Virus record (IMG/VR): IMGVR_UViG_3300033074_000806
Span: 1 to 64,000 of that record
Direction: 5' to 3' (one strand)
DNA: 64,000 bases
DNA from: a virus
Lineage: Duplodnaviria > Caudoviricetes
Shown here: positions 1,373 through 49,000 of the stretch, one piece after another
Numbering within the stretch: the first letter of the stretch is position 1
How the letters are laid out: each line of letters starts with the position of its first letter
Made by a program: the position numbers and the translations under genes
The notes under the pieces: generated by a model
Told to the model about the DNA's origin: nothing
Database searches by the model: none
What the model saw: only the letters and a program-made list of their open reading frames with translations

Positions 1373-2057
1373 TTATGCTATGGGAACGTCTAGCTCGACC
1401 CATAGTTTTCGCTCACACGTGTCATTTTATTGACACAACGCGCTAGCACTTAAGAGCTGTTTAAACTCAGCTAGCAGGAGTAAATACGGGTTGTCTCAGC
1501 AGGTAATCTATACAACGCAGCCCGTAAGCGTTGTTCCATAGCTGTGTTTTAATTTTAACTAGAGTGTTGAGCACAGAACATACTCTAGCGTGGTAGATTT
1601 AATTTGACCATGAACCATCTACCAGAGAGTCATGGATACTAGCTCCAGTATGTTTCTATACACTAACGCTGAAACACCATTAGTGTTACGGACAACTAGC
1701 AGAGTGCCCGGCATCTAGCTACTAGACTAGTGCTTTTTGATAGCAGGTATGTAGATATATCTAATACCATGAGGTAAGCTTTTCCCTCACTTGCTATCTA
1801 TGAGGAGTTCAAGGCCGCGTTGCCGACCCTGCTCTCCACAAATTCCTGTAACTGTCAAATTAATGACAGCGTCGCATGTGTTATTTTTAATAAAAACTTG
1901 AAACAATCGTTAATTATTTAATAGTATTATGAGTATTAATTAATTATCAATGTAAGTAGTATTATATATAACTAGTTATGTCGCTTCTTGTAGGTTAGTG
2001 CTAACCAAGCCTACCCAGCCTATTACGCACATAAGCCATGAAGGCTAGTAGGTAGTG

Positions 2058-3852: not shown

Positions 3853-4254
3853 TTAGGCGGGTGCAGGAGTCAGCTGCACTTCGCCCAGGATTTCCTTGCG
3901 GATGTGCTCGGGGAGATCCTTGAGCTTGGCCACAATGTTGCGGCGCTTGCTATCCATCTCCACGAGGTTGTTGAGGATCTTGGTCTCCTCCTGGTCCAAC
4001 TTCTGGCCCTGCTGTGTCAATTTACTGACACTGCCACGGATCTTGGCCTTTTCGAAGTTGGCGGCGGTCACTTCCAGTCCCAGCTTCAGTCCCTGGAAGA
4101 ATCCTTCTGCGGATCCTGCCAGTTGTGATGCACCAAGGATGGGGTGGCGGATGCCATAGGCGATGCCACCGACAGTCTTGCCGATGAGCACACCAGCAGT
4201 TTGGCCGAATGGGATGTCATTTTTCAGACACTCCCAGTTGATGTCCTTGTTCAT
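3853..4254 (-). CDS. Hypothetical protein (Gly-rich N-terminus, coiled-coil C-terminus)
   Basis: 133-aa ORF, GC-rich codon pattern in line with neighbours. Confidence 0.75.
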   Translation of the reverse strand: MNKDINWECLKNDIPFGQTAGVLIGKTVGGIAYGIRHPILGASQLAGSAEGFFQGLKLGLEVTAANFEKAKIRGSVSKLTQQGQKLDQEETKILNNLVEMDSKRRNIVAKLKDLPEHIRKEILGEVQLTPAPA

Positions 4255-4256
4255 GT

Positions 4257-4487
4257 TCAGATACCTGCCTGCTTGCAGTGGTAGTAGACTGCCACGGTCG
4301 ACACACCGTAACGTTGTGCTTCCAGCTTGACCACGGTTGCTCGTGCAGAGCTGTATCGTGGATAGCGCTGGATGACCTTGAGCATGTCGCGACGATCACG
4401 AACAGGAATCTTGGTGTTGCGTTGGATCTTCATCTGGACTGTCCTGATGGGATGTAGCATCAAAAAATACTCCCACGAGCTATTCAC
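4257..4487 (-). CDS. Small basic protein with HTH-like C-terminus
   Basis: AQRYGVSTVAVYYHCKQAGI resembles an HTH turn and recognition helix; true start may be 4460 or 4433. Confidence 0.55.
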   Translation of the reverse strand: MNSSWEYFLMLHPIRTVQMKIQRNTKIPVRDRRDMLKVIQRYPRYSSARATVVKLEAQRYGVSTVAVYYHCKQAGI

Positions 4488-4514
4488 TCATGAGAGTATT
4501 CTTTGACACCTGGA

Positions 4515-5186
4515 TCAGAACTTGACATCGTCGCCAGGGGCGAGCTCGGCTTCCTGCTCCACCTTGGTGTTGGGGCGCCTGACGTTGTCCTGGGCCTTGA
4601 CCCAGTAGAGGCCCTTGCCAGGCAGGCTGGGAGGTGCGTTGATGAACACCAGCTCCTCCAGGATCGGGATCACCCGGTGGCCCAGCTCGGTCGTGTTCCG
4701 CAGGTTCTCCATCTGCAGGAACTGGTCCAGGACATCGCCATCGATGAGCTTCTCCAGGTGCTCCCCAGACATGATCATCGGCTCGTCTCCGTTCAGCAGG
4801 CCCGGATAGGCCTCGATCAGACGCTGCTCGGCATCACGAGCGTCGTCACCGTTGGGGAACAGCAGGATGAGGCCCTGCTCCTCGTGGGCGTAGCCGATGT
4901 TGGCCGAGTTGGCACGCTTGATCTGCACCGGCTGTCCCTTGTCGTCCTCCGCGATTCGGGAGTAGGTGATGATCTCCGGTCGGTTCAGCTCGATGATGAG
5001 CTTCTCGAACTTGTCGGCGAGCTCGATCCCGAAGTAGGACTTGTCTCGTCGGCTGTAGGCCTGGCGGAACACGCTCATGCCCAGGGTGTTGTCACCCAGC
5101 TTGCGCTCCTTTCGGTTGTATTCGTTGACGCCGTGCTTGAACAGATTCTTGATGTGTGCTTCCATGTGTATCCTCGTTAGGATCAA
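4515..5186 (-). CDS. Hypothetical protein
   Basis: 223-aa ORF downstream of the RNAP gene; likely start ATG 5165 (GAGG upstream). Confidence 0.75.
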   Translation of the reverse strand: MILTRIHMEAHIKNLFKHGVNEYNRKERKLGDNTLGMSVFRQAYSRRDKSYFGIELADKFEKLIIELNRPEIITYSRIAEDDKGQPVQIKRANSANIGYAHEEQGLILLFPNGDDARDAEQRLIEAYPGLLNGDEPMIMSGEHLEKLIDGDVLDQFLQMENLRNTTELGHRVIPILEELVFINAPPSLPGKGLYWVKAQDNVRRPNTKVEQEAELAPGDDVKF

Positions 5187-5245
5187 AACGACTAAACAGA
5201 CATGGAGGATGTGAGCACAATGCCCACAATCCCTCCAAAGATTCC

Positions 5246-7594
5246 TTAGTTTGTCAGGCGAACCAAGGAACCGGAGTAAACAATCCTAGCCTCGTCCAAG
5301 GTCAGGACCTTGCAAACCAGGTTCGGACTGCTGTATTTGGCCAGTGTGCGAGCCAACACAGCCCATGCACCGACCTTCTTGGCTTTGTCCAGCCTGATCT
5401 TGATACGGAGTGCAAGCCGCTCCATCTCAGCCTGTGTCAAAGATTTGACATCTTGCTCAGATAGCGTCTTGTTCTCTTGGTTCTTTCGCAGGATTGTTTT
5501 GAAGCAGTCCTGATAGAACTCAGCCAACTGGCGTGATCTCAGAGACACTGCCATCTTGCAATCTGGGATCTTGATACGCTGTTGATCGATCCCATGCAGA
5601 GGCAGCCAGGTATCTGCTACCTCTTGGGCTACTAGGGCAATCCTTTCATAGATTGTCCCCTTGATGATGGGCGCTTCCCAATCATTTGCCCGGACGTGGT
5701 TGATGGCGAAGTCCATCTTCTCCAGGTTGTGGATTGCAGGCACGTTCACAATGGGCACCTCGTGCTTCTTGCGATCGACCTCAGCTTGCACAGCCCTGGA
5801 TAGCTGTAGCTTCATCTCATAGTCCAATCGGCCCATCTCATAGGCTCTGCGGGCCATGAGGTCCCACTTGCCAATGTTACCTTCAATGGTATACATGGCC
5901 TGCTTGATGCGCTCCTTCCAGCTAGTAGCACCAGTGCGCACCGACTTCTTCTTCTGTGTCAACAAACTGACAGGTGTCTTGTCATACACCTTACCTGGCA
6001 AAATATTGACAGTGTCGCTGGTAACACTGCAATCATCGCCATCGTAATCGCCGCCTTGAACTGTCATCCACGGCTCACTACTGATCTCGCAGTAGTTACC
6101 ATTGGTGTATCCCACGACAGTGTAACGCTGCGTGGAGTTGCCCACAGGCAAGCTGGGATCTCTGGTCACATCCACGAGGTCACCAACCACCCACTCGCAG
6201 AACTTGGGCACCTTGATCTCGAATGGCTCCAGGTCTGGATTGGGTGCAGCCTTGACTCGGATACCATTCATTGCGGCCTTGGTAGCAGCCTCGAATACGA
6301 ACTTCTTGTGGAAGTAGCGCGCCCTATCCAGGTCGATACCATAGCCGAGTGCCATCAGCTTCTCCACACCATGGGCCAGCCCAAAGTGTTTGAAGTCTGT
6401 CATTTTTCTGATCGATGGCACGAACAGCTCTTCGATCAGTTTTTTGATCTCGTCGGTGTTGTAGTTATAGACGAGTGCTTGGATGTTCAGGCATGGAGTC
6501 GGCCTGTAGAGGCTATCCGTGTTGTGGACCAGCATCGTGCTGGGGTTGAGGGTGCCGGTAAGGCAGCCGAATTTCCAGGACTCGGAGTAAACCTCAGGTT
6601 CTTGACCAGGATCGCACTCCATGATCGCGCCCTTGGTTGCGTGACCATTCTCCCTGTCAATGATGGTGATCTGCACCCATTTGGTGCTTTGAGGCATCCC
6701 ATACCAGCAGCGCTTGATCTGGTCCATGGTTTCCCTGGACACTCTGGCCACTAGCCCATCATACTTGGGATTGTCATTGACCTTGGTAGGCCAAGTGATC
6801 ATCTCATGGTGAACAGCCATGCTTCCAGACCGACAGAGCAGTTGCACTGCGTTCTGAAGGTCCTTGAGCCGGTTGTTTTTGATCAGTTGCATGCCGATGA
6901 TCCCACCCATGGCATGGATGATAGCGGGCCCGAATCCCTTGCCCTTGGCAAGCACAGCAGTGGTAGTGTGATCGCCAGCCTTGACTCCCAACAGATGGTA
7001 GTCGCGCCTTTCAGCTCTAATAGCCATCGTCTCCAGCTTCTCCTGGGAGATCTCCTTGGGGAGCTCCACATAGAACAGCCATTCATTGGACAGCCGTTCC
7101 TGATAGAGCTTGTAGTTGTATTTGACGAGTTCCCCAGCCTCCCACCGCCAGGTGGGTTCAGGACGAACTCGGTAGATCGCGCGCTTCACGGCTTGCTGAA
7201 GCTTCTTCACGAGCGCCTCGGAAGTCTCCAACTCCAGGTTGGGATCAACCGCAAGGATCTCGGCGATGTTGGCGATCAGCCCTTTGGCGCGCCTATTCGT
7301 GCCAGTAGCAAGTATCGCTTCTAGGCATTTGGTATTGAGACCTACAGAAGGAGGGAGGGAACGTGTGACGGTTTCCATGTGAACTAGGTGTGTGAACGTG
7401 ACTCGGCAGTTCCTGTAACTGGCTACAGGCCAGATACTTACCTCGGAGCCTGCATGACTGCCATCTGACAAGCTCAAAGAATGGTCGGAGTAGTCACGAT
7501 AGATTACTCCAACCTGGTTCTGATCAGTCAGCCCTCCTGCATACGTTGCAGACAGGCTGATAGCTACCTTCCGGCAGCTGAAAGATCTCACCAC
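5246..7594 (-). CDS. Single-chain double-psi-beta-barrel RNA polymerase, YonO / QDE-1 (cellular RdRP)-like
   Basis: Ordered motifs VQI...TKGAI, VTRDPSL, QGGDYDGDD (6035-6055), NIGKW, QAEVDRKKH; start codon uncertain. Confidence 0.8.
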   Translation of the reverse strand: MVRSFSCRKVAISLSATYAGGLTDQNQVGVIYRDYSDHSLSLSDGSHAGSEVSIWPVASYRNCRVTFTHLVHMETVTRSLPPSVGLNTKCLEAILATGTNRRAKGLIANIAEILAVDPNLELETSEALVKKLQQAVKRAIYRVRPEPTWRWEAGELVKYNYKLYQERLSNEWLFYVELPKEISQEKLETMAIRAERRDYHLLGVKAGDHTTTAVLAKGKGFGPAIIHAMGGIIGMQLIKNNRLKDLQNAVQLLCRSGSMAVHHEMITWPTKVNDNPKYDGLVARVSRETMDQIKRCWYGMPQSTKWVQITIIDRENGHATKGAIMECDPGQEPEVYSESWKFGCLTGTLNPSTMLVHNTDSLYRPTPCLNIQALVYNYNTDEIKKLIEELFVPSIRKMTDFKHFGLAHGVEKLMALGYGIDLDRARYFHKKFVFEAATKAAMNGIRVKAAPNPDLEPFEIKVPKFCEWVVGDLVDVTRDPSLPVGNSTQRYTVVGYTNGNYCEISSEPWMTVQGGDYDGDDCSVTSDTVNILPGKVYDKTPVSLLTQKKKSVRTGATSWKERIKQAMYTIEGNIGKWDLMARRAYEMGRLDYEMKLQLSRAVQAEVDRKKHEVPIVNVPAIHNLEKMDFAINHVRANDWEAPIIKGTIYERIALVAQEVADTWLPLHGIDQQRIKIPDCKMAVSLRSRQLAEFYQDCFKTILRKNQENKTLSEQDVKSLTQAEMERLALRIKIRLDKAKKVGAWAVLARTLAKYSSPNLVCKVLTLDEARIVYSGSLVRLTN

Positions 7595-7616
7595 AGCAAA
7601 CGCAAGCTACGAACAT
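7524..7616 (-). CDS. 30-aa zinc-ribbon micropeptide
   Basis: MFVACVCCGEIFQLPEGSYQPVCNVCRRAD, GGAG 8 nt upstream, just downstream of palindrome 7638. Confidence 0.5.
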   Translation of the reverse strand: MFVACVCCGEIFQLPEGSYQPVCNVCRRAD

Positions 7617-7678
7617 GTGCATGACTCCAACAGAACGCTGTCATTTAATTGATAGGTAGACAGCATCACCTATTTGAC

Positions 7679-8176
7679 TCAGAACTCGGCACTGGCCGTG
7701 TGAGAGTCAGTATCTTGGAAGCTGCCATCCGGGTTGAGAATCCAAGACCCACGAGTCTTCCCAGGGTTGGCAGCACTGATCTTCTGCATGAATCGAGCCA
7801 GCCCACGTTCCAGGGACCTGATGAACAGGCTTGTTTCGTGGTCCATGTTGGTGGCGTTGGGGTTCTTCCTATTGGACAGGAAGAACTTGTAGGACTTGAA
7901 CAGCAGCTTGGCCTTCTCGAACGACGGGTTCCAGACAAACAGGCCGAACTTGCCAGTGATCTTGCCCTTGCTAGCCTCGACCGTCCTGCTGCTGGGCACG
8001 AACTTGAAGACGAACGTGCCGTCGTTGATGGTGAGAAGGGTAAGGGAAGAGGGGTTGCTGGTAGCGGGCGTCTTGAGGCATGCATCACAGACAGCATCCT
8101 CAGGATTGAGCAGCATGAAGTGGGGAAGGTTGGACTTGTAGTCCACACCACAGACGTCACAGCGAACGAGTGTCAT
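7679..8176 (-). CDS. Hypothetical protein with N-terminal CxxC...CxxC zinc finger
   Basis: CDVC...CDAC; AAGGAG RBS. Confidence 0.75.
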   Translation of the reverse strand: MTLVRCDVCGVDYKSNLPHFMLLNPEDAVCDACLKTPATSNPSSLTLLTINDGTFVFKFVPSSRTVEASKGKITGKFGLFVWNPSFEKAKLLFKSYKFFLSNRKNPNATNMDHETSLFIRSLERGLARFMQKISAANPGKTRGSWILNPDGSFQDTDSHTASAEF

Positions 8177-8283
8177 TGCAGATCTCCTTGGTCACAGACC
8201 AATAAGGACACGGAACAGAACGACGATGATCAAAATAATGATCATCCTGGTGCCAGTGGTATTCTGGCAGTGACGGTAGGGTC

Positions 8284-8727
8284 TCACTTGTTGATCTCCT
8301 GGTTGTAGAACTTGGTGACGTTCTTGACCCAGTGCCTGTTGAGGCCTGTTGGATCATTGTCTGCACCCACTGGGCAGTAGCGATTGCCAAGCAGTGGTAT
8401 GAATGTGCCCATGTTACTGGGCCTACCTTGCCGCACCCACTCCTTGTAGACGGTAGCAGCACACCATCCAGCCTGGGTATCCAGGTTGGTATCTATGGCC
8501 CTAGGGTGTAGAACACCGAACTCCCTGCCTGCCCTACCATTCTCAGCCCTCCTAATGGCATACACCACAGGGGACAACAGGGCAATGTGCTCACTAGGTA
8601 TGTTCCTAGTGATAGCAGCATCGATGACAGCACGCTCAGGGTTGTTGCTGTGCTTGAGCTGCTTGACCTTAGTGGTGAGCAGACCAACACACACCACACA
8701 GAGGAAGAAGATGATGAATGCTCTCAT
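8284..8727 (-). CDS. Membrane-anchored lysozyme-fold / glucosaminidase-like murein hydrolase
   Basis: N-terminal hydrophobic helix; AIRRAENG catalytic-Glu-like motif; C-terminal RYCPVGADNDPTGLNRHWVKNV typical of phage glucosaminidase-like domains. Confidence 0.6.
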   Translation of the reverse strand: MRAFIIFFLCVVCVGLLTTKVKQLKHSNNPERAVIDAAITRNIPSEHIALLSPVVYAIRRAENGRAGREFGVLHPRAIDTNLDTQAGWCAATVYKEWVRQGRPSNMGTFIPLLGNRYCPVGADNDPTGLNRHWVKNVTKFYNQEINK

Positions 8728-8876
8728 TGGGCTTGCTCCTTGAGCATGAGCTGCTTGGTGAGCTCATACATGAACTTGAACCACAACAACGTGTTGTAGT
8801 CCATCTTGTTGTTCTTGAACAAGATCTCAGCTTGTCCAAGCTTGATCGCGTAATCAGTGAAGAGGCGAGTAGCCAT
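8724..8876 (-). CDS. 50-aa hypothetical protein, first gene of the leftward arm
   Basis: Hand translation MATRLFTDYAIKLGQAEILFKNNKMDYNTLLWFKFMYELTKQLMLKEQAQ; GGAG RBS; ATGA overlap with next gene. Confidence 0.6.
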   Translation of the reverse strand: MATRLFTDYAIKLGQAEILFKNNKMDYNTLLWFKFMYELTKQLMLKEQAQ

Positions 8877-9102
8877 GGAAATCTCCATTAAAAGAAGACC
8901 GGGTGGGCGTGAAACTCAACATGAGTCTCCTTTACTAAGCACCCAAACCCAACACTATTACCTGTCTATTTAGTGATTAGCTGTCTTTTTATTGATAGAA
9001 TCCCTATTAAATTTACAGCCGGTCTATTTTTAAAAAATTTTACTATAATTTTTTTACACGCGTTAAGGGTTCTCGCTAAACACATACAGAGGGATTTTCT
9101 CT

Positions 9103-14756: not shown

Positions 14757-16661
14757 ATGTCTGATAATAAAATAATAGAATTGTATAGAAAGGGATTAAG
14801 TAGAAAACTGATAGCTAAAACTCTTGGAATCTCAGAATGGAAAGTTAGATGCGCTATAAGACAGCAGCATACTAAGGCTATTAAAGCAAAAGAGTTTAAG
14901 ACTAATGATTCGATACGATTAAACAAAGTTTCAGTATCAAAAAATCAAAATCTTAGAAAGGCCCTGATTTTATCAGATATACATGTTCCATACCATGATC
15001 AAGCGGCTCTGGCAGTTGCTTTAGCCTATGCTAAAGATTATGGTCCAGATATAATAGTTCTTAATGGGGATATCATTGATTTTTATGGCGCAAGTTCTTA
15101 TCGCCAAGATCCAATAAGAATTGACACTCTACAGGATGAACTTACAGAAGGTAAGGCACTCTTAAAGAAAATAAGAGACGAACATCCAAATGCTGAAATA
15201 TACTATATTGAAGGCAACCATGAGACTCGTCTAAAAAGGTTCTTACTAGATAAAGCACCAGCATTAGCGTGCCTGTCCTGTTTATCTTTTGACGAGCTAA
15301 TAGGCCTAAAAGAGCATGAGATAAAGTTCATAGACTATGGCCAGAGTATACAGCTAGGTGATCTTGAAGTTACGCACGGAGAAATTGTAAGAAAAGGTGC
15401 AGGCATGTCTGCTAAGGCGCACTCTGATAAAAGTGGTGCATCTATCTTAATAGGACACTGTTTTGATGAAAAAACTGAGATCCTTACTAATGAAGGCTGG
15501 AAAAATTATAATCAAATAACAGATACTGAAATAGTAGCTACCTATAATAGGGTGTTAGATAAACTAGAATATCAAAAAATTGATAAACTTTATATCTATT
15601 CAAATTACTCAGAATTATACCATCTAAAATCTAGAGACATCGATTTAATGGTTACGGATAAACATGGACTTTGGGCCACCAAGAGCGGCAGTAACAAATG
15701 GTTTGAAACAACAGCAGAAGACGCGGCTACTAAATCTAGACTATCTTATAAGGCCGGAGCTATTCATAATGAGTGTAAACTAAATGAAAATGATTCATTC
15801 ATTAATCTAATTGCTTGGATTATGGCTGAAGGACATTTTGAAAAACAAAATGGTAAAATATCACAGATAAGAATAGCTCAATCTGATGCTCCTGACGGAA
15901 GATTAGAAAGATTAAAATCAGATATTGCTAACTGTGGAATTAAATATTCTTGCACAAAAAGATATAACGCTGGTTCTATAGAACACGGTCAATATAGAAA
16001 TTATGATGCATACAGAATAAATTTACACGATCCAAAAGGCGACGTAAGAGCCAAAATATTTAATTATCTTGATGAAAACAAGACTCCTACAAGATTATTA
16101 GCCAATATGTCTTCTTCTCAGCTAGAATCTTTTTTAACTACTTATATTTGGGCAGATGGAACCTTTAATAAAGCTTCAAAAAATAGTTATCAAGTTGCTT
16201 CAAATAGGCAAGACCATATAGATTTCTTGCAAGAAATATCTGCAAGATTAGGATACAGAACATCAACATCCCACAATAATGGTATGCGCTATCTTACAAT
16301 AAATACTAGAAACTTAGTGCAAGCAGATAAATCTCATTGGACTAAAGTAAAGTATTCTGGTCATGTTTGGTGTGTGTCTGTTCCAAATGGGACTCTCTTG
16401 GTTAGAAGAGGCGGTCACACTATTATAACTCTTAACACGCACAGAATAGGAAATATTTGTCGCACGAATAAATGGGGAACACATGTGTCTATTGAGAATG
16501 GACACCTTGGTCGTAATGATTTTGAATATGTGAATAACCCAGATTGGCAGCACGGCTTTACACAAGTAGAATTTTTTGATGATGGTCGATTTTTTGCTCG
16601 TAGCCACATCATAAATAATGGTTCATTGGTTGTTGATGGGACACTATATGAAACGAAGTAA
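14757..16661 (+). CDS. Calcineurin-like metallophosphoesterase with N-terminal HTH and an intein
   Basis: SDIH, GDIID, GNHE, THG, GH|TH motifs; LSRKLIAKTLGISEWKV HTH. Confidence 0.85.
   Translation: MSDNKIIELYRKGLSRKLIAKTLGISEWKVRCAIRQQHTKAIKAKEFKTNDSIRLNKVSVSKNQNLRKALILSDIHVPYHDQAALAVALAYAKDYGPDIIVLNGDIIDFYGASSYRQDPIRIDTLQDELTEGKALLKKIRDEHPNAEIYYIEGNHETRLKRFLLDKAPALACLSCLSFDELIGLKEHEIKFIDYGQSIQLGDLEVTHGEIVRKGAGMSAKAHSDKSGASILIGHCFDEKTEILTNEGWKNYNQITDTEIVATYNRVLDKLEYQKIDKLYIYSNYSELYHLKSRDIDLMVTDKHGLWATKSGSNKWFETTAEDAATKSRLSYKAGAIHNECKLNENDSFINLIAWIMAEGHFEKQNGKISQIRIAQSDAPDGRLERLKSDIANCGIKYSCTKRYNAGSIEHGQYRNYDAYRINLHDPKGDVRAKIFNYLDENKTPTRLLANMSSSQLESFLTTYIWADGTFNKASKNSYQVASNRQDHIDFLQEISARLGYRTSTSHNNGMRYLTINTRNLVQADKSHWTKVKYSGHVWCVSVPNGTLLVRRGGHTIITLNTHRIGNICRTNKWGTHVSIENGHLGRNDFEYVNNPDWQHGFTQVEFFDDGRFFARSHIINNGSLVVDGTLYETK
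15459..16436 (+). mobile_element. Intein (326 aa) with LAGLIDADG-type endonuclease in the phosphoesterase
   Basis: Starts CFDEKTEILT, block B VTDKH, WIMAEG and YIWADG, ends VWCVSVPNGTLLVRRGGHTIITLN followed by T. Confidence 0.85.
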
Positions 16662-16763: not shown

Positions 16764-19664
16764 ATGCCAGAATACCTCCCAGAAAGAGATTACGAAGCTA
16801 ATAAGTGGCAGCCAGTTAAGAAAGGCCCAGAGGACCTTTGTGGTTCCTGCGTAAACTATTACGCTGAGTTATATGTCAAAGGTATAACAAAAACACCATT
16901 TCCTCCATCTTGCAGCAAGCACATAACCGATCCAATAAAAGCTCTTAGACTAGAAGACTTTGAGTCAGAAGACGATTTTGAACTAGCTAAAATAGCTCTG
17001 GATCCAGTTGCTTGGGCCATGTATGAGCTTGAGTGGGATCTTAGATGGTATCAGGCTGATGTGCTTAGCTGCACTTCTCAATTCAAAGTATTACGGCAAG
17101 GAAGACGTTGCCTTGCTAAAGGCACTTTAGTTGCTACTCCAACTGGGCCTGTGCCTATTGAATCTTTAAATCCAGGCGATGAAGTATATTCAGAACATGG
17201 ATCTATAATTAAAGTTAAAGAATTATTTGATCAAGGTATGCAAGATGTAGTAGATATTTCACATAGAAATAAAATTCTTGCTACATGCACCCTAGATCAC
17301 GTTTGGGCTACAGTTAAGCAGCATTCTAAAACTAGAAATATTCCACACCCAGGACTAAGAAAAACTTCTCAGTTAGATAAGTATACTTTAATTGATAGAG
17401 TTGAAATTGAAGCTCCATTAGGAACTGTAGATGAGCCATTAGCTTACGTAATTGGAACCTTATTAGGAGATGGTTGCTGCAGAGAACATTATCTTTCCAT
17501 ATCTAGTGCTGAACCAAAATTAGTTGCTAGTGTTGCCGCTCAGTTAGGGGCAACCTATAGAAAAAATAGTCCAACTAACTATACATGGAATATGCCTAAA
17601 GAAAACAAGGCTAAAATCCCTTACTATTTTGATTGGCTTCATAATAAGTATGCACATGAAAAAATAGTTGACTTGAGTGTAATAAAGACTTGGAATAGGC
17701 AGACACTATTGAGGCTAGTAGCCGGGCTTATAGATACTGATGGCAGCGTCTCTCGACATTATGATGCTAATGGCAACATAAAAGAGATAGCTGTTAGTCT
17801 GGGTATGCAGGCTAAATCCGTAATAGAAGCCGCTCAGTATGCTTTCTTAGCACTATGGCAAATAACCACCAATATAGGTATTGATAATAGATCTAAGTAT
17901 AAAAACGGCCCTGTTTGGAATATAACTGTCAAAAATATTCACCAATGTAAGAGGATTTTAAAAGAATTAGATCCTTATATGAATGTTGGATCTAAAAAAT
18001 ATGATACAGCTTATGATTCTCTAGTTCCATATAATTTCAATCCTAAAGGTATGGGCGGGACTTTAAAGAACCCTAGAAAAGAGCAATGCTATGACATACA
18101 TGTGGATTCACCAACAAACTTGTATCTTTTAGCAAATGGACTAGTAACTCATAATTCAGGTAAGTCCAATACCCTTATGGTTGATGCCTTGCATTTTGCG
18201 GTGACCCAACCAGGCAAAACTGTGCTAATATTGGCTCCATTTGAGCCCCAAGTAGAAAAACTATTTGAGGAATTGCACATGTTAATAAATAGAAGCAGGA
18301 CCATAAAGTCTTCTATAGTTAGAGATGTTAAAAAACCTTGCATGATCAGTTTTGCAAATGGCTCTCATATTAAAGGGCTATCGGCTGGATCAAAAAATAC
18401 CACTAATAGATCGGATAAGATTCGTGGACAGGACGCCCACTACATCATTATTGACGAAATCGACTATATTCCTGATGAAGACCTAGTAGCTATTACTGCT
18501 ATTTTGGCTTCTCACAATGATTGTAAGATCGCAGTTTGCTGCACGCCTACAGGCGAGCACTCTAGATTCTTTTCTTATTGTGTTGACAAAGATCAAAAAT
18601 TTAAAGAGTTCCACATAATAGCACAAGAATCACCTGAGTGGAATGCAACTATCGAGGAATTCTTCTTACGTGACTATGGAGGAAAACATACTCCTGCGTG
18701 GGATCACGAAATTCTAGCTGAGTTCGGAAAGCAAGAACATGGCGTCTTTAGTAACGAGCGCATTGATGCATCAGTTCAAAACTATCAAATAGAAACAGCT
18801 GAGCCCCAACCTGGAAGATCTTATATCTGTGGCGTAGATTGGAATAAGACAGCCGGAACCCATATCCTTATAGTAGAAACTACTGGGACATTATTTAAGC
18901 CTGTTAAAAAAATAATAATTCCCAACAGTGATTTCGTCCAAACTTTAGCCGTCGAAACTGTTATAGACTTATTTTATAAGTGGTCACTGAGCCTAATTGT
19001 AGTAGATGTCGGATATGGCTCAACACAGATCGAACTTCTAAAGAAACATGGAATTGCAAATCCTGGCGGTGGATTGCTAAGAAGATTAAAGCCGATTGCT
19101 ATGCAAGAGCATATTGAGCTAAGAGACCCTAAAAATGGTATAATTAGACGCACTCCAACAAAGCCCTTCTTAGTCAACTGCTTAAAAAATGTATTAGATG
19201 AAGGTAATTTAATTCTACCAAAAGCTGAAGATACAATCGAAACTCGTAAAAATGCAATTCATGGTCTTGTTCAGCAAATGAGAAACTTTAAAATTGAGGG
19301 GCACTCAATTTATGGTGTCCCTAAGTATTCTCAAGGCTACGACCATACTATGACGGCGCTAATGCTTGCAATCTCTGGTTACTTATTAGAGCATTCAGAC
19401 TTACAGAAAGTAAACTACTTAACTAGAGCAGCTACAGTTCAAGCAGACACTGGCATCTCTGACGCAGAAAGATTTTCAGAAAAAGAATCTTATAAAAAAG
19501 ATCCATCTATAATTCCAAGTAGACAGCTCAATAAAGGTGCAAGTTTATTTGGTTACACCACAAACAACGGCATGTCTGTTCAAAGACAGCAAAAGCATAT
19601 CAGAACTTTTGGTCCAGGCCGGGCAGATAGTAAGCCAAATACGTTTAAACGAAAGTCATTTTAA
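16764..19664 (+). CDS. terL: Terminase large subunit with intein
   Basis: Spliced Walker A GRR|SGKS, Walker B IIIDE, CTP coupling motif, nuclease GVDW and DHT motifs. Confidence 0.92.
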   Translation: MPEYLPERDYEANKWQPVKKGPEDLCGSCVNYYAELYVKGITKTPFPPSCSKHITDPIKALRLEDFESEDDFELAKIALDPVAWAMYELEWDLRWYQADVLSCTSQFKVLRQGRRCLAKGTLVATPTGPVPIESLNPGDEVYSEHGSIIKVKELFDQGMQDVVDISHRNKILATCTLDHVWATVKQHSKTRNIPHPGLRKTSQLDKYTLIDRVEIEAPLGTVDEPLAYVIGTLLGDGCCREHYLSISSAEPKLVASVAAQLGATYRKNSPTNYTWNMPKENKAKIPYYFDWLHNKYAHEKIVDLSVIKTWNRQTLLRLVAGLIDTDGSVSRHYDANGNIKEIAVSLGMQAKSVIEAAQYAFLALWQITTNIGIDNRSKYKNGPVWNITVKNIHQCKRILKELDPYMNVGSKKYDTAYDSLVPYNFNPKGMGGTLKNPRKEQCYDIHVDSPTNLYLLANGLVTHNSGKSNTLMVDALHFAVTQPGKTVLILAPFEPQVEKLFEELHMLINRSRTIKSSIVRDVKKPCMISFANGSHIKGLSAGSKNTTNRSDKIRGQDAHYIIIDEIDYIPDEDLVAITAILASHNDCKIAVCCTPTGEHSRFFSYCVDKDQKFKEFHIIAQESPEWNATIEEFFLRDYGGKHTPAWDHEILAEFGKQEHGVFSNERIDASVQNYQIETAEPQPGRSYICGVDWNKTAGTHILIVETTGTLFKPVKKIIIPNSDFVQTLAVETVIDLFYKWSLSLIVVDVGYGSTQIELLKKHGIANPGGGLLRRLKPIAMQEHIELRDPKNGIIRRTPTKPFLVNCLKNVLDEGNLILPKAEDTIETRKNAIHGLVQQMRNFKIEGHSIYGVPKYSQGYDHTMTALMLAISGYLLEHSDLQKVNYLTRAATVQADTGISDAERFSEKESYKKDPSIIPSRQLNKGASLFGYTTNNGMSVQRQQKHIRTFGPGRADSKPNTFKRKSF
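17109..18155 (+). mobile_element. Intein (349 aa) with LAGLIDADG endonuclease in the TerL Walker A
   Basis: CLAKGT start, TLDH, LLGDG, AGLIDTDG, ends LVTHN followed by S. Confidence 0.92.
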
Positions 19665-22638: not shown

Positions 22639-25600
22639 ATGACAGATTCTAATATACCTGTAAACGACATAAAACTATCAGTAGGTACTCCTAAAGAACT
22701 TAGTGAGGAGATGCTAAAAGCCCGTAGCAAGATGCTTGCTAAAGGTCTTTCATATGAGGGAAAAGGGACGTATATCCCATCTAGATCTTCTGACGGTAAC
22801 TTTGTCAGCCCCATTTATGATCTCGCAGAGATAGTTAGGTGCGTTGACGTAGAGCCTTATGTTGCCCAATCAATTCGGCGCCATAGAGAACAGATTCTAA
22901 AAGAAGGCTATAGTGTAGAGGGCGAAGATGAAGAAATGGTTGCTTATATAAAACAGCGACTATTTGAGATTTCTTTAGTTTCTGGCATACCAACTTCTAG
23001 CTGGATTAGAGAAGCTATTACCAATATGGTAACTTGCCATACCTCCTACTTAGTCTTTAGACGAGATGAGGATAGGTCTAGTGGATCCATTATCCAAATG
23101 TATGGTAAAACATTGTCTCCAATAGCTGGTATCTATACTGTTGACCCCACTACTATGTCAGTCAAGGTCGATAAGTATGGAACCCCTAAGCAATGGAAAC
23201 AAAAGATAACTGCGGACACTGGATTTGATTCTGGTGATACTGAAAAAACCTTTCCACCTGAAGATGTTGTCTGTATAACAGTCGATAAAAAGAGTGGATT
23301 TACTTTTGGAACACCATATATTTTGCCTGTTCTAGAAGATATTAGAGCATTACGAAAGCTAGAAGAGCTAGCGATGATTATTGCTAGTAAAGAAGCTTTC
23401 CCATTATACCACTACAAAGTAGGAACGCCAGAACAGCCAGCTATGGCTTATGAAGGCGGCGGGTCTGAAGTAGATATAGTTAAATCAGAAGTAGCTAATA
23501 TGCCTACTGGTGGTGCAGTAATAACAACTGAGCGACATGAAATTAATCTAATTAGTCGTCAAGGCGGCGCTCTAGATCTGCATCCATACCTAGAATACTT
23601 TGAGGCTAGAGTTTTGGCTGGTCTTAGACTATCTCCTATGGATCTAGGAAGAGGCGGTTCAGCTAATAGAGCCTGCTATTCCTCAGACACAGAAACTTTA
23701 ACCGATAAGGGCTGGAAGCATTATTGGAACATTGATATAAAGACTGATAAAATCGCTACTGTCGACCCAATAACAGGCGAATTAAAGTATGAGCTGGCCA
23801 ATGACTTATATGTCTACAAATATACAGGAAAAATGATCCACTTTGCTAACAATCTAATTGATTGCTTAGTAACTCCTGATCATGATATGTGGGTTAAAAA
23901 CAATGGCGCATTTAGCAAGATTAAAGCTGAAAAGCTTACAGAACTAGCTTCTAACGACCGCGATGCTTATACCTTTACTAATAAGGTTAATTGGCTAGCT
24001 AAAGATAAGTCTAACAAAGATTTAATAACTTTTGTCGCATACTTTATCCGCTATGGAAAAATAAATAAGTATAGAGAGGAAGTTAAATTTATTGTTAGAA
24101 ATCAAGAAGTTGCAAAAACAATAAAAGATTTCATAACAGGATTAAAACTAGAGTTTAGGTCCTATGATAATGATGGTTATACAAAAATTGTTATATACCA
24201 TCCAGATCTAGTTATCAAGCTATCAAAAGATCTAGGAACTTCAGAATATCCAAAGCGGCTACCGAGATGGATTCTTGATCTTTCTAAAAATGATCTTATC
24301 CATTTCTATTCTAAACTAACACAATTTGACAGCAGTTACGGTGAACTAAAAGTTTTCAGAGATCGTAGTTCAATTATAGTTAGTCAAGTGCAAGAAATAC
24401 TATTAAAAATAGGAATTGCCTCTAAACAAACAGAAACTGGATTATATCTGTTAACTGATGAGGATCCACAAGTAAAGTGGACATGGCAAGATTATGACGC
24501 TGATGTCTACTGCTTTAATGTTCCAAATCATTTATTTATCACCCGCAGAAATGGAATAATAAGTATTCAAGGCAATACTGCTAGCAATATAAATCAAAAT
24601 GTCCAAGATGCAGCTAAAGACTATCAAGAGGTGTTTAGCGATGCTATAACATATGGAATATTTATTCCTTTATTGTTAGAAGGTGGATTTGATATTAATG
24701 TAGAGAATATAGCAAAGCTAAGCTTCCCTATGATAAATAGAGAGGAACTTAGAGCCCACCAAAATCATGGACATCAGCTAATGATGGGAAATGCCATTAC
24801 TGATGATGAATTCCGTAAAGACTACTTGAAAAAGAAGCCTCTATCTGATGAAGAAAGGGCCCTATTGGCTAGACAGCTTGATACTGATTCTGCTAAAGAA
24901 ATAGAAAGTCATGCGGCCTCAGTTGCTCCAACTCAAACAACTGAAGGTCCTGGCGGACCGGAAGTAACGAAAACTATAACTAAGAAGCGTGGAAGTCCAG
25001 AAAATAATACGACTACCAAAAAAGTTATAAAAATGGCCAACAATAAGGGCCAACCAGCTAATCAGTATGGTAAGAAAGCAGCAAAGAGCAGATTTAAGGC
25101 TAACGACTATGCCTCAGCTGTATTAGATAATGTTGAGCAATTAACTAGCCGCCTATCCGAAATTGCAGTTTCAGACTTGGAAGATGTTGAATCTGAAGAT
25201 ATCAAAGACGAGATTGATCAAAATTTTAAAACATTTGTAACTATGTGTGGCCAAGAAGCAACTAAATACCTACCGGCTGAAATTGATAGCGGAGCGACAT
25301 TAGTTCCTGGAGGTCTACAAATTGGTTCTAGAGCTAAAGAGAAATTTTTGACAAACTATGTTCAAAAATCATATTACAAATTCTTAAATCCAATAGCTGA
25401 TAAAATAAAGGGCTGCTTCGAACGAGACATAGACGGAAATATGCCGAACTTCCTAAGTCTAAAAGAACTATCTGGAATCTCAAATTCTATCAATTTTTTG
25501 ATTAATGAGCATAAAGAAGTAGCTAAAAGATTTGGATTTGCTAAAGCTGCAAGAAACTTAGGCTATAATTCAATGATATTAGAAAATATTGAATCTAAAG

Positions 25601-25725
25601 ATCGCAAAACTATTGACCTTCCTTTAAAAGGTCCTATTCCATATCAAAATCTTATAGCTGATAGCAAAAATTACCAGTTGTTACTTGGGAATAAGGTAGG
25701 GAGTGTCACAGAATCAGATGAATAA
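22639..25725 (+). CDS. Portal protein with intein
   Basis: Position before protease/MCP; FGTPYILPVLEDIRALRKLEE and LGRGGSANRA|TA portal-type segments. Confidence 0.8.
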   Translation: MTDSNIPVNDIKLSVGTPKELSEEMLKARSKMLAKGLSYEGKGTYIPSRSSDGNFVSPIYDLAEIVRCVDVEPYVAQSIRRHREQILKEGYSVEGEDEEMVAYIKQRLFEISLVSGIPTSSWIREAITNMVTCHTSYLVFRRDEDRSSGSIIQMYGKTLSPIAGIYTVDPTTMSVKVDKYGTPKQWKQKITADTGFDSGDTEKTFPPEDVVCITVDKKSGFTFGTPYILPVLEDIRALRKLEELAMIIASKEAFPLYHYKVGTPEQPAMAYEGGGSEVDIVKSEVANMPTGGAVITTERHEINLISRQGGALDLHPYLEYFEARVLAGLRLSPMDLGRGGSANRACYSSDTETLTDKGWKHYWNIDIKTDKIATVDPITGELKYELANDLYVYKYTGKMIHFANNLIDCLVTPDHDMWVKNNGAFSKIKAEKLTELASNDRDAYTFTNKVNWLAKDKSNKDLITFVAYFIRYGKINKYREEVKFIVRNQEVAKTIKDFITGLKLEFRSYDNDGYTKIVIYHPDLVIKLSKDLGTSEYPKRLPRWILDLSKNDLIHFYSKLTQFDSSYGELKVFRDRSSIIVSQVQEILLKIGIASKQTETGLYLLTDEDPQVKWTWQDYDADVYCFNVPNHLFITRRNGIISIQGNTASNINQNVQDAAKDYQEVFSDAITYGIFIPLLLEGGFDINVENIAKLSFPMINREELRAHQNHGHQLMMGNAITDDEFRKDYLKKKPLSDEERALLARQLDTDSAKEIESHAASVAPTQTTEGPGGPEVTKTITKKRGSPENNTTTKKVIKMANNKGQPANQYGKKAAKSRFKANDYASAVLDNVEQLTSRLSEIAVSDLEDVESEDIKDEIDQNFKTFVTMCGQEATKYLPAEIDSGATLVPGGLQIGSRAKEKFLTNYVQKSYYKFLNPIADKIKGCFERDIDGNMPNFLSLKELSGISNSINFLINEHKEVAKRFGFAKAARNLGYNSMILENIESKDRKTIDLPLKGPIPYQNLIADSKNYQLLLGNKVGSVTESDE
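23674..24576 (+). mobile_element. Intein (301 aa) with degenerate endonuclease in the portal
   Basis: CYSSDTETLT start, VTPDH, ends VYCFNVPNHLFITRRNGIISIQGN followed by T; first LAGLIDADG motif decayed (YFIRYG). Confidence 0.85.
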
Positions 25726-44700: not shown

Positions 44701-46031
44701 TTGCCCCATATAGCACTGCTTATCAAAAATATCTAGCTAAAATTGGGAATCCTGAGAGATATGCTCCGTATTGGCGCGATAAATTAAAAGCAGCAATAAC
44801 TCAAAAGGATACTATTGTTAATCAGTTGTATCAGTATGAAAGAATAAAGCCAGGTATAAATGATTTAAATAGTAAGACTAAAGCTGGCGGATTCTATCAA
44901 ATGCTGCAGAAGGGATGGGATTCGTTAACACACGATGTCTTAGCAGAAATTCCATATTTTGGTAGTAAGTTCGCTCCATTTAGAGATGCTTTAGAAAGAT
45001 ATGAAAAAGAACAGATATATGGAGATAGCTTTGCTGATTGGAATAGACCCTGGGAAACTATAGTTCGGCCAGCTATTTATGATACTGCAAGATCAAATCC
45101 AGTATATGGGGCTGCTAAGGGTGCTATAATCGGCGCCCTAATGAGCAATGCTATTCCAGGAGTAGGCGGTTCATTGTTTAACCCTGTTGTAGGTCTTAGA
45201 AATTCAGCAACTGCTATACCATTCTTTGGAGCTGTTGGCGCAGCTTTAAGCTTAGGTAGATCAGCTATTACCGATCAGCATTTCGTTCCGCCACATAAAC
45301 AAAGCGAAATTGAAGCTCAAGACTATATGGATAGAGTTGTTTACGCAAAGGCTAGATCTTTTGAAATAGCGGCAACAGAGATGGGCGATAAAGAGCTTGC
45401 CAGCGGCTATGCCCGTCTAGCTGGAAAAACACTAGTTGGAGCAACTAGCCAACGTGGAACAAAATCAGCTTTAAACTCCTTTGATAGAAAGTATTTTGAT
45501 ACTTTTGTAAATAGTGAAGAAAGCGGAAGATCGGAATTACTAGCAAGATTGCCACAATATTATGGGCACGCGCTCAATAAAGTCTGGTCTAATGACTATG
45601 GCACAGAGCGTCAGCACGATTTAGAGACATTAGAATACTTTAGCAATAACGCACCACCGTCTACAGATTCATTAATATGGCACCCATCTGTTCCAACTTC
45701 TGCTTTGAAGATTAAAATGATTCAGGGCGGAATTAATGGCGTTAGTGATAACCTACATCGATTTGGATTTTACGAAAGTCAGGGCCTAGAGGCGGCTGAT
45801 AGATTCCCAAATGTCAATTTTATGACTACTAGTAAAATTAGCTCGCCCAATTTTAACTCGCTAAAAAACGATATACAGATTAATTTAAGACGACTAAATC
45901 CATTTGCTAATCCTGAGAATGTAAAGATCAAACAAATACACAATAGCCAATATAATCAAGCTTACGAGATAAGTCAAAAAATTGATAGAAAGCAAGAAAC
46001 CTATAGATACATGAGCGATATAATGAGATGA
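41754..46031 (+). CDS. Large tape-measure / ejection-type virion protein
   Basis: 1425 aa, Gly/Ala-rich hydrophobic patches, position after chaperones. Confidence 0.55.
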   Translation: MADSFNQEANNQKAENSGILTSILAGLGVIGLGQIIYGRAGKGNLIADLLHFTGNTLRGKGIDLKYAANAGKSRPTSGASAGARTVLDTSIDVRTGALRLDDLSIVKDLVYQARVIGASSASDQRSALTELTKNAIAARYKQSNVVSFFGQKLERLTVGEVLADQKRFQQSIGKNSWEVIRSAEERGIIKKDYILDTRIFATSKGIRDTRLKPLGKSILKNVDFLGLSSVVKAVTIGADQRFGILPGSAGGPLKFFIDGDIYSFSRSKEGVLKTNKVPGKFILRDANDPLHVATRLRSGEAYVEDPKPTNLYNKLQSALGIGTAYRNRDSLFTSIFINPIKRLRALETGEGILYRKPYKKTTSAAAEAAFGDIAPEAFGADNYVKTAGQQTPKLSELKFLDRLKVTFGVHDELAIIKARSYREKLRFNKVLTNTDLVVPRPTGRVKNVDTFFASKLSGQVIDAANSYTGAGEVTNRLKSKFYTARAGLGNKVLDFTNYAITRLNSLASGSLAGIGFKVSGSIKTNLFRLAGIPLAYEGIKETAGYLDYLSESTIGVSPLKLLGDAYATARVAQQKFREITGIQQLMKTAEEDFPGAVNSELGFFGRTAAAPFLTFMKGVKSGLGVKKSGILAGVMEFLFGGSSPEQTSEELSKEYSGITKVPVRRGALWGMGYQPFFGGDIQYYDYSWYYKMQSDYKTKSLYGSREEYYTKHANVLGIPLPTPSNLFGIRNLFNNYALEEANYYRRPYQETAGMFDEFPIFGPMLSATVGQLIKPTKKMHVSELYGLPAQTASLVDRTLPLNSAKRLGITDIPVTEMMLQDSSDPLVRLQQQAAIATEPLGIYQFILTYLGVNLKYNQANDPASASIMGSAGRELYDSNLGGFFGQTEFIRRFFPSEKYLASKQRQLYNPLRNLMPTWLPGIGSEEKSDQDYFMDFLHGDPYAKLESGDSRLPGVGYEALNPLYSNMPGVYSDVDRFLILSDVAPYSTAYQKYLAKIGNPERYAPYWRDKLKAAITQKDTIVNQLYQYERIKPGINDLNSKTKAGGFYQMLQKGWDSLTHDVLAEIPYFGSKFAPFRDALERYEKEQIYGDSFADWNRPWETIVRPAIYDTARSNPVYGAAKGAIIGALMSNAIPGVGGSLFNPVVGLRNSATAIPFFGAVGAALSLGRSAITDQHFVPPHKQSEIEAQDYMDRVVYAKARSFEIAATEMGDKELASGYARLAGKTLVGATSQRGTKSALNSFDRKYFDTFVNSEESGRSELLARLPQYYGHALNKVWSNDYGTERQHDLETLEYFSNNAPPSTDSLIWHPSVPTSALKIKMIQGGINGVSDNLHRFGFYESQGLEAADRFPNVNFMTTSKISSPNFNSLKNDIQINLRRLNPFANPENVKIKQIHNSQYNQAYEISQKIDRKQETYRYMSDIMR

Positions 46032-49000
46032 AAGAAATAATTGATAGGTCTCGTCAAACGTTTAATAAACTGTTCGATACTATAGGTAAATTCGGCAGTA
46101 AGTATGATGTTTATAACTTTACTGCATTCGATACTGAAACAAACGCGCTATTAAAGGGCGATGCTAAACTAGGTGCCCAAACAGATATCTTTAAGCAGGG
46201 CGCATCTGGCATAAGAACTATATTTGCTAGAAAGGCAGTTTTTGATAGATTTGGTAATGTAAAGGATGAATCAGCAGTCCATTTATTGATGGGTGGTGGT
46301 AAGATATCTACCCAAGGTGAAAAGTTCTTCAAAGATGTTGGGCTAACAATAGATAGGATTCTTCCTAACTTTGAAACCATCCCCAGTGAATATAGAGAAA
46401 GATTAAGAGGTAAGGCCTTAACTAATAGATCTCTTAACTATTTAGAGGCTGTTCAAAAGAAAACAGGTAAGAAATTATTGACAACTGAGGGCGAGCTAGC
46501 AGATGTTCTAAATAATATGCTAGGACATTCAACTAATACTATGAATGTCGCTATTGGACATAACGCTAGTAGATTCGATTTGATGATGGCCAGAGGTGTT
46601 AAAGGATTTAAGGGTGTAGGCAGCTCTACACATATCCTAGATACTTATGAGCTAACCACTAGAATGTTCCCTGAGCTAGCAGTAGAAAAGACTGGCGCCC
46701 TAGAACTAGATAATCTTATATCTTTAATGATGTATGAGTCTGGTAATAAGACTAAAGCTAAAATAAAAGATCCACTAAGACAGGCGACAGCCACTGAAGT
46801 TGATGCTCTAAAATTCTATGGAATTGATAATGTTCCACAAGAATTTAAAGCAGTATCAAAAATGTTTGGCGGTTCAACTGGAGTTCTTGCTGCCGGCGCA
46901 CATAGTGCCGATGTTGACTCGTTACGGTCTATGGCGATACTACATGCTGCTATGCTAAGAGCAGAAACATCTAAATCAGCATCAGAAATCTTTCATGGTT
47001 ATCTAACTGAGATCGGTGTCAAAGAACATCTATCTGCTATAGATATAATGAGTCGTATTAAGAAATTTGATCCTCAGCAAGTTTCTAGATACATGAATGT
47101 TGGAGGATATAAAGGTAAGATAAAAGACCTATTTGATATACTACAATCAGGACAAACTAGTATAGATGATTTAACTATTTATTCCAGATCTGGAATGAAT
47201 GAGTTATTTTCTGAATTAGGTAATCGATTTGGAAAAGGATTTGTATCCTCGTTTGCCCCAACAGCTAGAGCACTAGCAGAAGGGATGGACGCTGGAGTTT
47301 TCATGCTACGTGGAAACTCTCTTAAGTTTGGTAGGTTGGGAGACGCAGCATCTTTTATTTCCCTACCAACGCAGAACTTTAATAAGTTAGGCAATGGATT
47401 AATAAATATGGGCGATAAGCTTCGCTCAGTGACTAATCTATTAAGCCTAGGAAACAATAAAACAACAGTAGTCCCTTTTAGCCGATTCTTCTATTCTAAT
47501 ATGAATAGAATAATTGGAAGTGGTTTAAATCCTACTGATAGCAATGCTGCATATGCACTGCCAAATATAGTTAGACAAACGCTAGGAACTAAAGTATTTG
47601 GAACTAAATCACTGGGCTCCTTATTAGGATCTCATCCAACAGAGATGGGATTACCGAACTTCTCTGCTATTACAGCAAAAGCTGGAGTCTTACAGGTTAT
47701 AGAAAGTAATGCGCCCATTGTCCAGCATTATAAAAACCTCCAACAAGGAATACAATTAAGAAACCTAAGCATTGGGAATAGCCTTTCTAACTTTAAGAAA
47801 GCTAGAAAAATAATCGAAAGCAGCATCTCTGGTATCAGTTCTGAGCTTAATAGGCTAGGCATCGGCGCACAAGCAGCTTTTTCCAAAGCTGAGTCCCTAT
47901 TAGATGATGGATTAAAGTTAACTGTCGGCAGCTTATTAAGTGATATGACTATTCCAGAGGTCAGAGGCTTTGAAAAAGGTCGGCTAAGAAGACTTGGAAC
48001 AATATCCAATAGCCATACTGCGCGGTTAAGAAAACTTGGCAGACCTGTAGGTCCGTCTGTAATTTCTGAAAAGTGGGAATCAGCTGGCATAAGAAGCTCA
48101 TTCCAAGGCGGCGTATTTGTTGCTGAGTTTGATACGATGTCAAATTTAAGATCTTCATTTGAAGATTCAGCTGTATATGCTAGCAGAACTGGTTTGAATC
48201 TATTAAAGCAAAAAAGATATGCAGGTAGCGTAACTTTAAGAGACTGGTCAGCTAGAGACGTAAGTTTATTAAATCAATATTTAGATCCAACAGGAGCATT
48301 TAATTTAGAGCCTGGTATCGATTTTAGACCAACAGATGAGTCTGGTTATTTTAAAGTTCGTAATAGAAGAATGTTCTCTGATAAACGCAGAGAAATCGCT
48401 GCTGAATTATTTAGTGGAAAATCTAAAATTCAAAGACGTGTATTAGAGCAAATTATACGAGGCAGAGCAGCTTTGTCCCAAGCTGTGTTCACAGAAGATG
48501 CAATACAACTAAAATTTGCCACTAGAGCGTTTACAGGCAGTAGATCAGATAGCATCTTACTGGGCCCGTTGGGATCTCTTAGAGCCACAGTAAATGGATT
48601 TGTTGGCGGACGCATTTCTAAACTGATGCGCTCAATTGGAGCTGACTTCATCATGTCAGCAGAAAACTTAAAAGGTGCAGCCCCAGCTGATTTAATTACA
48701 CAGCATAGAATTTCATTGGTTCAGAGAGAAGGTGCCTTAGATGAGCTAGTTGGTTTCTTTAATTCTCAACGAGATGGATTTAGACTCGCACCGTCTAGTG
48801 TTCCTGGTGTTCGCACTCTAGTAATGCCATCTGGCGTAACAAAAGATGAGGTTCTAAAGTTTACTGAGCTATTCAAAACTCATTTAGTTAAAACTGCCGC
48901 TGAGCATTTGGATAAAGATAGAACACGTAGAACCTTAAAAATAATACGTGGGTATGATGGTATAAGAGCATCAGGCAATGTCATAAGAAAGATAGCTAGC

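Follow-up and report, generated by a model that had tools for sequence, protein, structure and literature searches.

The window analyzed here is a 64,000-nucleotide stretch of phage DNA, positions 1-64,000 of the IMG/VR record IMGVR_UViG_3300033074_000806 (130,587 bp, linear, estimated to be 68% complete), and carries on its minus strand a gene that most probably encodes a compact single-subunit RNA polymerase (RNAP). The gene was first pointed out in an earlier note, made from the sequence alone, as an open reading frame (ORF) with five polymerase motifs in the expected order. The ORF is present at 5246..7594 (-), with 782 aa and a GTG start, and so are all five motifs: in the 782-aa numbering these are WVQITII...TKGAI (K321, G322), VTRDPSLPVGN (476-486), QGGDYDGDDC (513-522), NIGKW (573-577), and LSRAVQAEVDRKKH (598-611). 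They follow one another as described and fall in invariant or near-invariant columns of the family, the five motif positions being invariant in a 9-sequence alignment.

The polymerase most likely starts at the ATG at 7378, which gives a protein of 710 residues (5246..7378, -), in agreement with the "782 aa or less" of the earlier note. This start is favored because the homologs, 709-733 aa long, begin at the position of M73 (782-aa numbering), because the DNA alignment of the upstream region in three phages contains indels and shows no conserved frame across 7379-7523, and because the supposed N-terminal extension is overlapped in a different frame by a conserved 30-aa micro-ORF (7616..7524). 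The first 72 codons are thus probably not translated, and the upstream portion of the 782-aa ORF (7379..7594, -) probably represents an untranslated leader rather than part of the protein.

The domain order is that of a two-barrel polymerase (710-aa numbering from here on). The first double-psi beta-barrel (DPBB), the beta-like DPBB-B, is placed at residues ~200-300 (6479..6781, -) and includes K249-G250 of the TKG motif and K269, both lysines being invariant. The beta-prime-like DPBB-A, assigned from structural matches to residues ~367-460 (5999..6280, -), contains R406-x-P408 and the metal-binding loop D444-Y-D446-G-D448 (6035..6049, -), the predicted catalytic Mg2+-binding aspartate triad and the sole copy of DxDGD in all six frames of the 130.6 kb record. 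It is followed by helices 487-536 (5759..5920, -), with NIGKWD...ARR and AVQAEVDRKKH, which profile and structural alignments identify as a putative bridge-helix/trigger-loop region; they align with residues 374-428 of gp64 from Thermus phage P23-45 in a profile search, and with the equivalent part of the largest subunits of cellular RNAPs. Across 25 aligned sequences, with identities as low as 18%, 15 residues are invariant: G208, K249, G250, Q300, G372, R406, P408, W437, G443, D444, D446, G447, D448, G503, and K538.

Predicted Fold and Relatives of the Polymerase

An AlphaFold2 model built from the 25-sequence alignment has a mean predicted local distance difference test score (pLDDT) of 91.8 and a predicted template modeling score (pTM) of 0.88. 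It predicts a crab-claw architecture with a clamp over the full length of the chain, as in gp62 of Thermus phage P74-26. In a Foldseek search of the PDB, QDE-1 comes first (2j7n, E-value 3.3e-14, template modeling score 0.55), then gp62 and gp64 at ~1e-12 and, lower down, RDR2, P23-45 gp96 (5e-7), crAss gp66 (6e-4), and cellular beta-prime subunits. VIA-align, an aligner independent of Foldseek, returns gp62 as the best match (Z 19.6, 495 residues aligned, root-mean-square deviation 4.5 Å), with residues 92-707 of the model on residues 3-582 of the chain, followed by RDR2 (Z 17.6), QDE-1 (15.5), gp96 (12.4), and crAss gp66 (11.9). The largest subunits of cellular and viral multisubunit RNAPs reach Z ~10-11 on residues 358-583, and isolated DPBB domains Z ~8 on residues 371-458. 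In BFVD, the best match is a 701-aa viral protein (3.6e-27), which has the size of gp44 from Thermus phage phiFa, and P23-45 gp64 is recovered at 3.9e-12.

Because the matches of the whole model are dominated by the beta-prime-like barrel, residues 165-310 were folded separately (pLDDT 88.2). VIA-align matches this fragment to the DPBB-B of crAss gp66 (Z 8.0), RDR2 (7.0), QDE-1 (residues 661-787, 5.7), gp62 (5.5), and gp96 (4.8), next to the beta-type subunits of phiKZ, vaccinia, AR9, Pol III, and bacterial RNAP, and then to generic DPBB domains. Foldseek gives the same order with a best E-value of 2.3e-3, the scores of this second barrel being modest. Both DPBBs are therefore found in the model by both aligners, so that the lack of two such domains, named in the earlier note as refuting the assignment, does not apply, and the DxDGD loop, judging from the single 495-residue superposition onto gp62, would lie at the interface between them. 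The placement of the protein in the earlier note, as a compact single-subunit RNAP of the QDE-1/RDR-type clade, is borne out by the fold, by both predicted barrels, and by the invariant catalytic residues.

At the sequence level, a tblastn search of 50,697 GenBank phage records matched only one, that of phiFa, in a gene annotated as "RNA polymerase" (gp44), which sits within the 5' long terminal repeat. This is the closest known protein by sequence, with 26% identity over 396 residues across both barrels (residues 180-538) and an E-value of 3e-26 in pairwise BLASTP. The pairwise value is relied upon here instead of the 100% obtained with hhalign, which is inflated because the alignment includes gp44-like sequences. 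The family profile retrieves PDB entries 8f72 (8.8e-14) and 8f5m (4.7e-12), corresponding to P23-45 gp64 and P74-26 gp62, which serve their phages as non-virion RNAPs (PMC10770324); neither these two nor gp44 had been named in the earlier note. Given the BLASTP and profile values, the conservation of the motifs is well beyond chance. Database names for the gp64 family can be misleading: phrog_25317 is labeled "head protein," and 8f72 and 8f5m are listed as "TPR_REGION domain-containing protein" and "Envelope glycoprotein gp62," so that routine annotation would miss these polymerases.

The affinity to the "YonO / eukaryotic RdRP type" (RdRP, RNA-dependent RNA polymerase) proposed in the earlier note holds in kind but calls for refinement. 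The fold does match QDE-1 and RDR2, but SPbeta YonO (taken from SPBc2) shows no detectable relationship by sequence: hhalign gives a probability of 2.8% (E-value 0.016), and BLASTP of YonO against 37 family proteins yields no match at 1e-3. The hhalign alignment nonetheless brings the R-x-P, DxDGD, and IG regions together in the same order. The similarity to the eukaryotic enzymes is weak in sequence as well. The only Pfam family touched is RdRP (PF05183), with 20.1 bits for the 782-aa form and 20.3 bits for the 710-aa form (E-value ~2.5e-4 to 2.9e-4), and the match lies under the gathering score of 23.8 bits; it spans profile positions 431-556 only, the part from DPBB-A to the bridge helix. 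Nine of the 25 family members show this weak match, at best with 1.5e-5.

The family is rare: a search of 1.84 billion representative proteins yields 30 clusters of it at 50% identity, and 10 clusters are counted at 90% identity. Further members are found in contigs binned as metagenome-assembled genomes of Planctomycetota and Gammaproteobacteria, and in three IMG/VR contigs of ~68 kb. A quick IQ-TREE analysis separates two clades with support of 99-100. The gp44-like clade comprises phiFa and the three IMG/VR contigs, and the protein of the window belongs to the other, a sister of 21 rows outside the clade of the characterized members. In this tree, it is a relative of the gp64/gp44 family that stands outside the Thermus-phage subgroup. 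The gp64 homologs described in the literature all come from Thermus phages related to P23-45 (PMC10770324). The results support a new sister clade of the Thermus-phage gp44/gp64 family of non-virion RNAPs rather than a relative of YonO, which widens the known range of this lineage beyond Thermus siphoviruses, to large AT-rich myoviruses and to phage-like contigs binned with Planctomycetota and Gammaproteobacteria, and which keeps a weak sequence similarity to the eukaryotic RdRP profile. The enzyme class itself has been known since 2017-2024; what is new in the protein is the branch that it represents within a family described in recent years.

The protein shares with gp44, gp64, and gp62 a single chain built from DPBB-B, connector, DPBB-A, bridge-helix region, and helical clamp, the R-x-P, GDxDGD, IG...ARR, and Q/A-x-x-D-x-x-K motifs, and a gene located near the left end in an early-type block. 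However, it is only 26% identical to gp44 and ~14% to gp62, and is ~90 residues longer than gp62 at the N-terminus. Its virus, moreover, is a ~190 kb AT-rich myovirus, unlike the long-tailed siphoviruses of Thermus, and no partner in the form of a tape-measure-fused virion RNAP was found in the 130.6 kb. QDE-1 and RDR2 resemble it in the two-barrel fold over most of the chain, in the DYDGD loop, and, weakly, in sequence over the stretch between DPBB-A and the bridge helix. By contrast, these enzymes are 900-1100 aa long, carry additional head and slab domains as well as an extended DPBB-B helix, and act on RNA or single-stranded DNA in silencing pathways instead of viral transcription. The gp66 of crAss-like phage phi14:2 and P23-45 gp96 belong to the same superfamily and have both barrels, but each is only one domain within a very large virion protein (2180 and 5002 aa, respectively), gp96 lacking a clamp, whereas the protein of the window stands alone and has one. 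YonO is likewise a single-chain two-barrel phage RNAP that acts on DNA; it differs in its length of 839 aa and in transcribing late genes (PMC5467207).

Proposed Role in Transcription and Alternative Readings

Among the relatives of cellular RNA polymerase, single-chain two-barrel RNAPs are the simplest, and the polymerases of eukaryotic RNA interference presumably arose from them. To our knowledge, only a handful of them have been characterized, namely YonO, crAss gp66, and P23-45 gp64 and gp96. To the homology, fold, paired barrels, and active-site conservation observed here, the characterized relatives and the gene context add a probable role: the protein would be a catalytically intact single-chain two-barrel RNAP, used by the phage as a DNA-dependent transcriptase of its own and left out of the virion, a reading to which a probability of about 0.8 is given. 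The best guide to this role is gp64, a monomer that elongates RNA on an RNA-DNA scaffold and binds phage DNA in chromatin immunoprecipitation sequencing; it is not detected in virions, and its targets are early and some middle genes (PMC10770324). A late-gene role on the model of YonO is unsupported. The context also speaks for a phage transcriptase: the virus is a double-stranded DNA myovirus, the gene lies in a leftward block opposite the structural genes with synteny kept in relatives, and in the 130.6 kb no sigma-70 region 2, beta-like gene, or second DxDGD was found, nor a T7-type RNAP, the latter in a search without a positive control.

In the proposed mechanism, one polypeptide would bring together DPBB-B (K249, K269), DPBB-A (R406-x-P408, D444-x-D446-G-D448), the bridge-helix/trigger-loop region, and the helical clamp. 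Its gene would be expressed early, from a GC-rich leftward operon to the left of the structural block, under the control of a conserved palindromic site. Transcription of this operon would most likely begin with the host RNA polymerase, since no virion RNAP was found in the 130.6 kb. The phage polymerase could then transcribe phage DNA without the host enzyme, candidate targets being the early and middle genes, as for gp64, or the long AT-rich rightward block. The expression of the RNAP genes of phiFa and G18 without a virion RNAP was left open by the P23-45 study (PMC10770324).

Several observations weigh against this assignment. The record is only ~68% complete, and a virion RNAP, a sigma factor, or a modifier of the host RNAP could be encoded in the missing part. 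QDE-1, which is similar in structure, accepts DNA as well as RNA as template, and template preference is not readable from sequence. Moreover, enrichment of exact 9-11-mers across the few intergenic regions gave no promoter for the polymerase, and a sigma-70-like site at 9066-9037 (-) is no better than chance (27 sites vs 21 expected).

The behavior of QDE-1 leads to one alternative, in which the enzyme is mainly RNA-dependent, or templated by both DNA and RNA, and copies phage or host RNAs, for example small RNAs of the early arm, rather than acting as the phage transcriptase. PF05183 as the sole Pfam family touched, in nine of 25 members, QDE-1 at the top of the Foldseek matches (3e-14), the Z of 17.6 for RDR2, and an early arm without ORFs of at least 70 aa at 560-2445 are all consistent with it. 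However, the Pfam match is below gathering, no RNA gene of the early arm was confirmed (ARAGORN found no tRNA, and Rfam gave one sub-threshold match), and the nearest relatives gp44 and gp64, like the closest structural counterpart, gp62, are phage RNAPs that depend on DNA (PMC10770324), which makes this alternative quite unlikely. A polymerase packaged in the virion and delivered together with the DNA to read the first genes, as for crAss gp66 and P23-45 gp96, is very unlikely. Phages that need their own RNAP gene transcribed do often carry a virion RNAP, and no other RNAP was found in the 130.6 kb, but the gene lies in a leftward early-type block outside the structural genes, and its product matches the non-virion gp62/gp64 throughout, clamp and crab claw included (Z 19.6), as opposed to 12.4 for the clamp-less virion gp96. 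In addition, the known virion RNAPs of the superfamily are fused to large virion proteins (PMC10770324), whereas the 710-aa protein stands alone.

A non-transcriptional role, such as the priming of DNA replication, or a decaying relic is extremely unlikely. Although the gene lies within a compositionally foreign island, the catalytic residues are all invariant down to 18% identity, the phage encodes its own DnaG-DnaB primase-helicase, and gene and synteny are kept in several independently assembled relatives. With its 710 aa and a high-confidence model, the protein is a candidate well suited to biochemistry on template choice and on sigma-free promoter recognition, and its phage would offer a system in which to study how an RNAP gene comes to be expressed without a virion RNAP. 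The GC-rich island, the palindromic site, and the micro-ORF described below provide concrete handles on this expression.

The Leftward Operon and the Early Arm

The polymerase gene belongs to a leftward block at 3853..8888 (-) that is rich in GC at third codon positions (GC3) and divergent from the structural block. The gene order is 54-aa ORF, p147, p165, micro-ORF, RNAP, p223, p76, and p133, and is kept in relatives. Searches of Pfam, PHROGs, and Atlas gave no usable function for the neighbor p223. The GC content of this island is 0.53-0.60 and its GC3 0.64-0.86, compared with 0.382 for the GC of the genome and 0.24-0.42 for the GC3 of the other genes. It is not an assembly chimera, because it is also present in independently assembled relatives. 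Between relatives, fourfold-degenerate sites of the RNAP gene are 45-51% identical (27-29% expected at random), and their GC is 0.58-0.63 in all three lineages vs 0.21-0.32 in the gene next to it. These values are better explained by a maintained regional bias than by recent transfer, with slow amelioration as a conceivable alternative. A similar contrast in GC surrounds the RNAP gene in the distant family members L010, L011, and L013, which hints at either a general property of the family or a mobile cassette passed among phages.

Just upstream of the micro-ORF and the RNAP gene lies a 24-nt site (7635..7658) that contains the palindrome TATCA-N6-TGACA. The 24-mer is identical and in the same place in the relatives L003, L005, and L006, whose RNAPs are 69-76% identical. 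It is one of a larger set: TGTCA-N6-TGACA with an AT-rich N6 occurs genome-wide at 23 sites with at most one mismatch, vs 5.35 expected (an approximately fourfold excess), and 12 of these, including all six exact ones, fall within the first 7.7 kb (87, 1420, 1853, 2212, 2961, 3147, 4015, 4215, 5435, 5957, 5996, and 7639). Weaker copies are located at 3492, 3728, 8980, and 9660. Several copies lie 12-40 nt upstream of the start codons of small leftward ORFs. The palindrome was not found at the distant RNAP loci, and no Pfam domain pointing to a DNA-binding regulator was detected in ten small early ORFs. The 24-nt site is more likely a DNA site, a candidate operator or promoter, than an RNA element, because the conserved leader folds no better than shuffled sequence (z -0.36).

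Between this site and the RNAP gene, the micro-ORF (7524..7616, -) encodes 30 aa with four cysteines (CxCC-N14-CxxC) and is preceded by GGAG 8 nt upstream. Its orthologs in L003 and L006 keep the frame, the length, and the cysteine positions despite divergence of the DNA. Upstream, p165 (7679-8176) starts with a zinc-ribbon-like CxxC...CxxC segment. A more speculative proposal takes the GC3-rich operon, the palindromes of the early arm, and the Cys4 micro-protein together, with the RNAP as the core of a self-contained and compositionally insulated early-transcription cassette. This is unlikely; if it were true, the RNAP might have in the micro-protein a small zinc-ribbon subunit or regulator, and in the palindromes its promoters or operators.

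Farther to the left, the ~1.9 kb from 560 to 2445 contains three exact copies of the palindrome and no ORF of at least 70 aa, nor any tRNA according to ARAGORN. A Pistol ribozyme candidate at 1411-1481 (-) scores 27.7 bits against a gathering score of 34.5 and was not accepted; it is probably not a ribozyme, because its main stem is one of the palindromes.

The Phage Genome

The virus is a double-stranded DNA myovirus of ~190 kb, distantly related to Bacillus phage 0305phi8-36. On the plus strand, PHROGs recognizes terminase, portal, major head protein, tail sheath, and baseplate wedge, and the capsid and sheath proteins share ~30-39% identity with those of 0305phi8-36, Moorella phage MTATph1, and Acinetobacter phage ME3. 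The layout is also that of 0305phi8-36, with a leftward block at the left end followed by a long rightward structural block. A YonO-like ORF has been reported in 0305phi8-36 (PMC2919709); in a search of the genome record, however, neither the family profile nor YonO gave a match. From 9103 to record position 104892, the genes are co-directional on the plus strand over ~96 kb, many of them encoding more than 1000 aa, with four intergenic gaps of at least 35 nt, which implies very long transcription units. A second RNAP, of the virion type, was considered in the tail module, in an 1802-aa ORF (46028-51436, +), but gained no support from sequence searches. No Pfam family was found, the Atlas lists no model of the protein, PDB searches with phmmer and with the profile returned chance matches only, and a virion RNAP with a DEDDh exonuclease is unsupported, with 0.2% in hhalign against the RNAP family and only three close homologs of the ORF.

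Intein-like insertions are present in the metallophosphoesterase (14757-16661), the terminase large subunit (16764-19664), the portal (22639-25725), and, at the far end of the record, the DnaG-DnaB primase-helicase (record positions 126751-130392), which shows LAGLIDADG and intein-splicing matches. The metallophosphoesterase and terminase large subunit of L003 are 308 and 619 aa long, compared with 634 and 966 aa here. The far end also encodes sugar-modifying enzymes: between record positions 106900 and 123400 (-), a DegT aminotransferase, two NAD-dependent epimerase/dehydratases, a UDP-GlcNAc (UDP-N-acetylglucosamine) 2-epimerase, and a glycosyltransferase form a cluster that suggests the modification of glycans or of DNA or virion.

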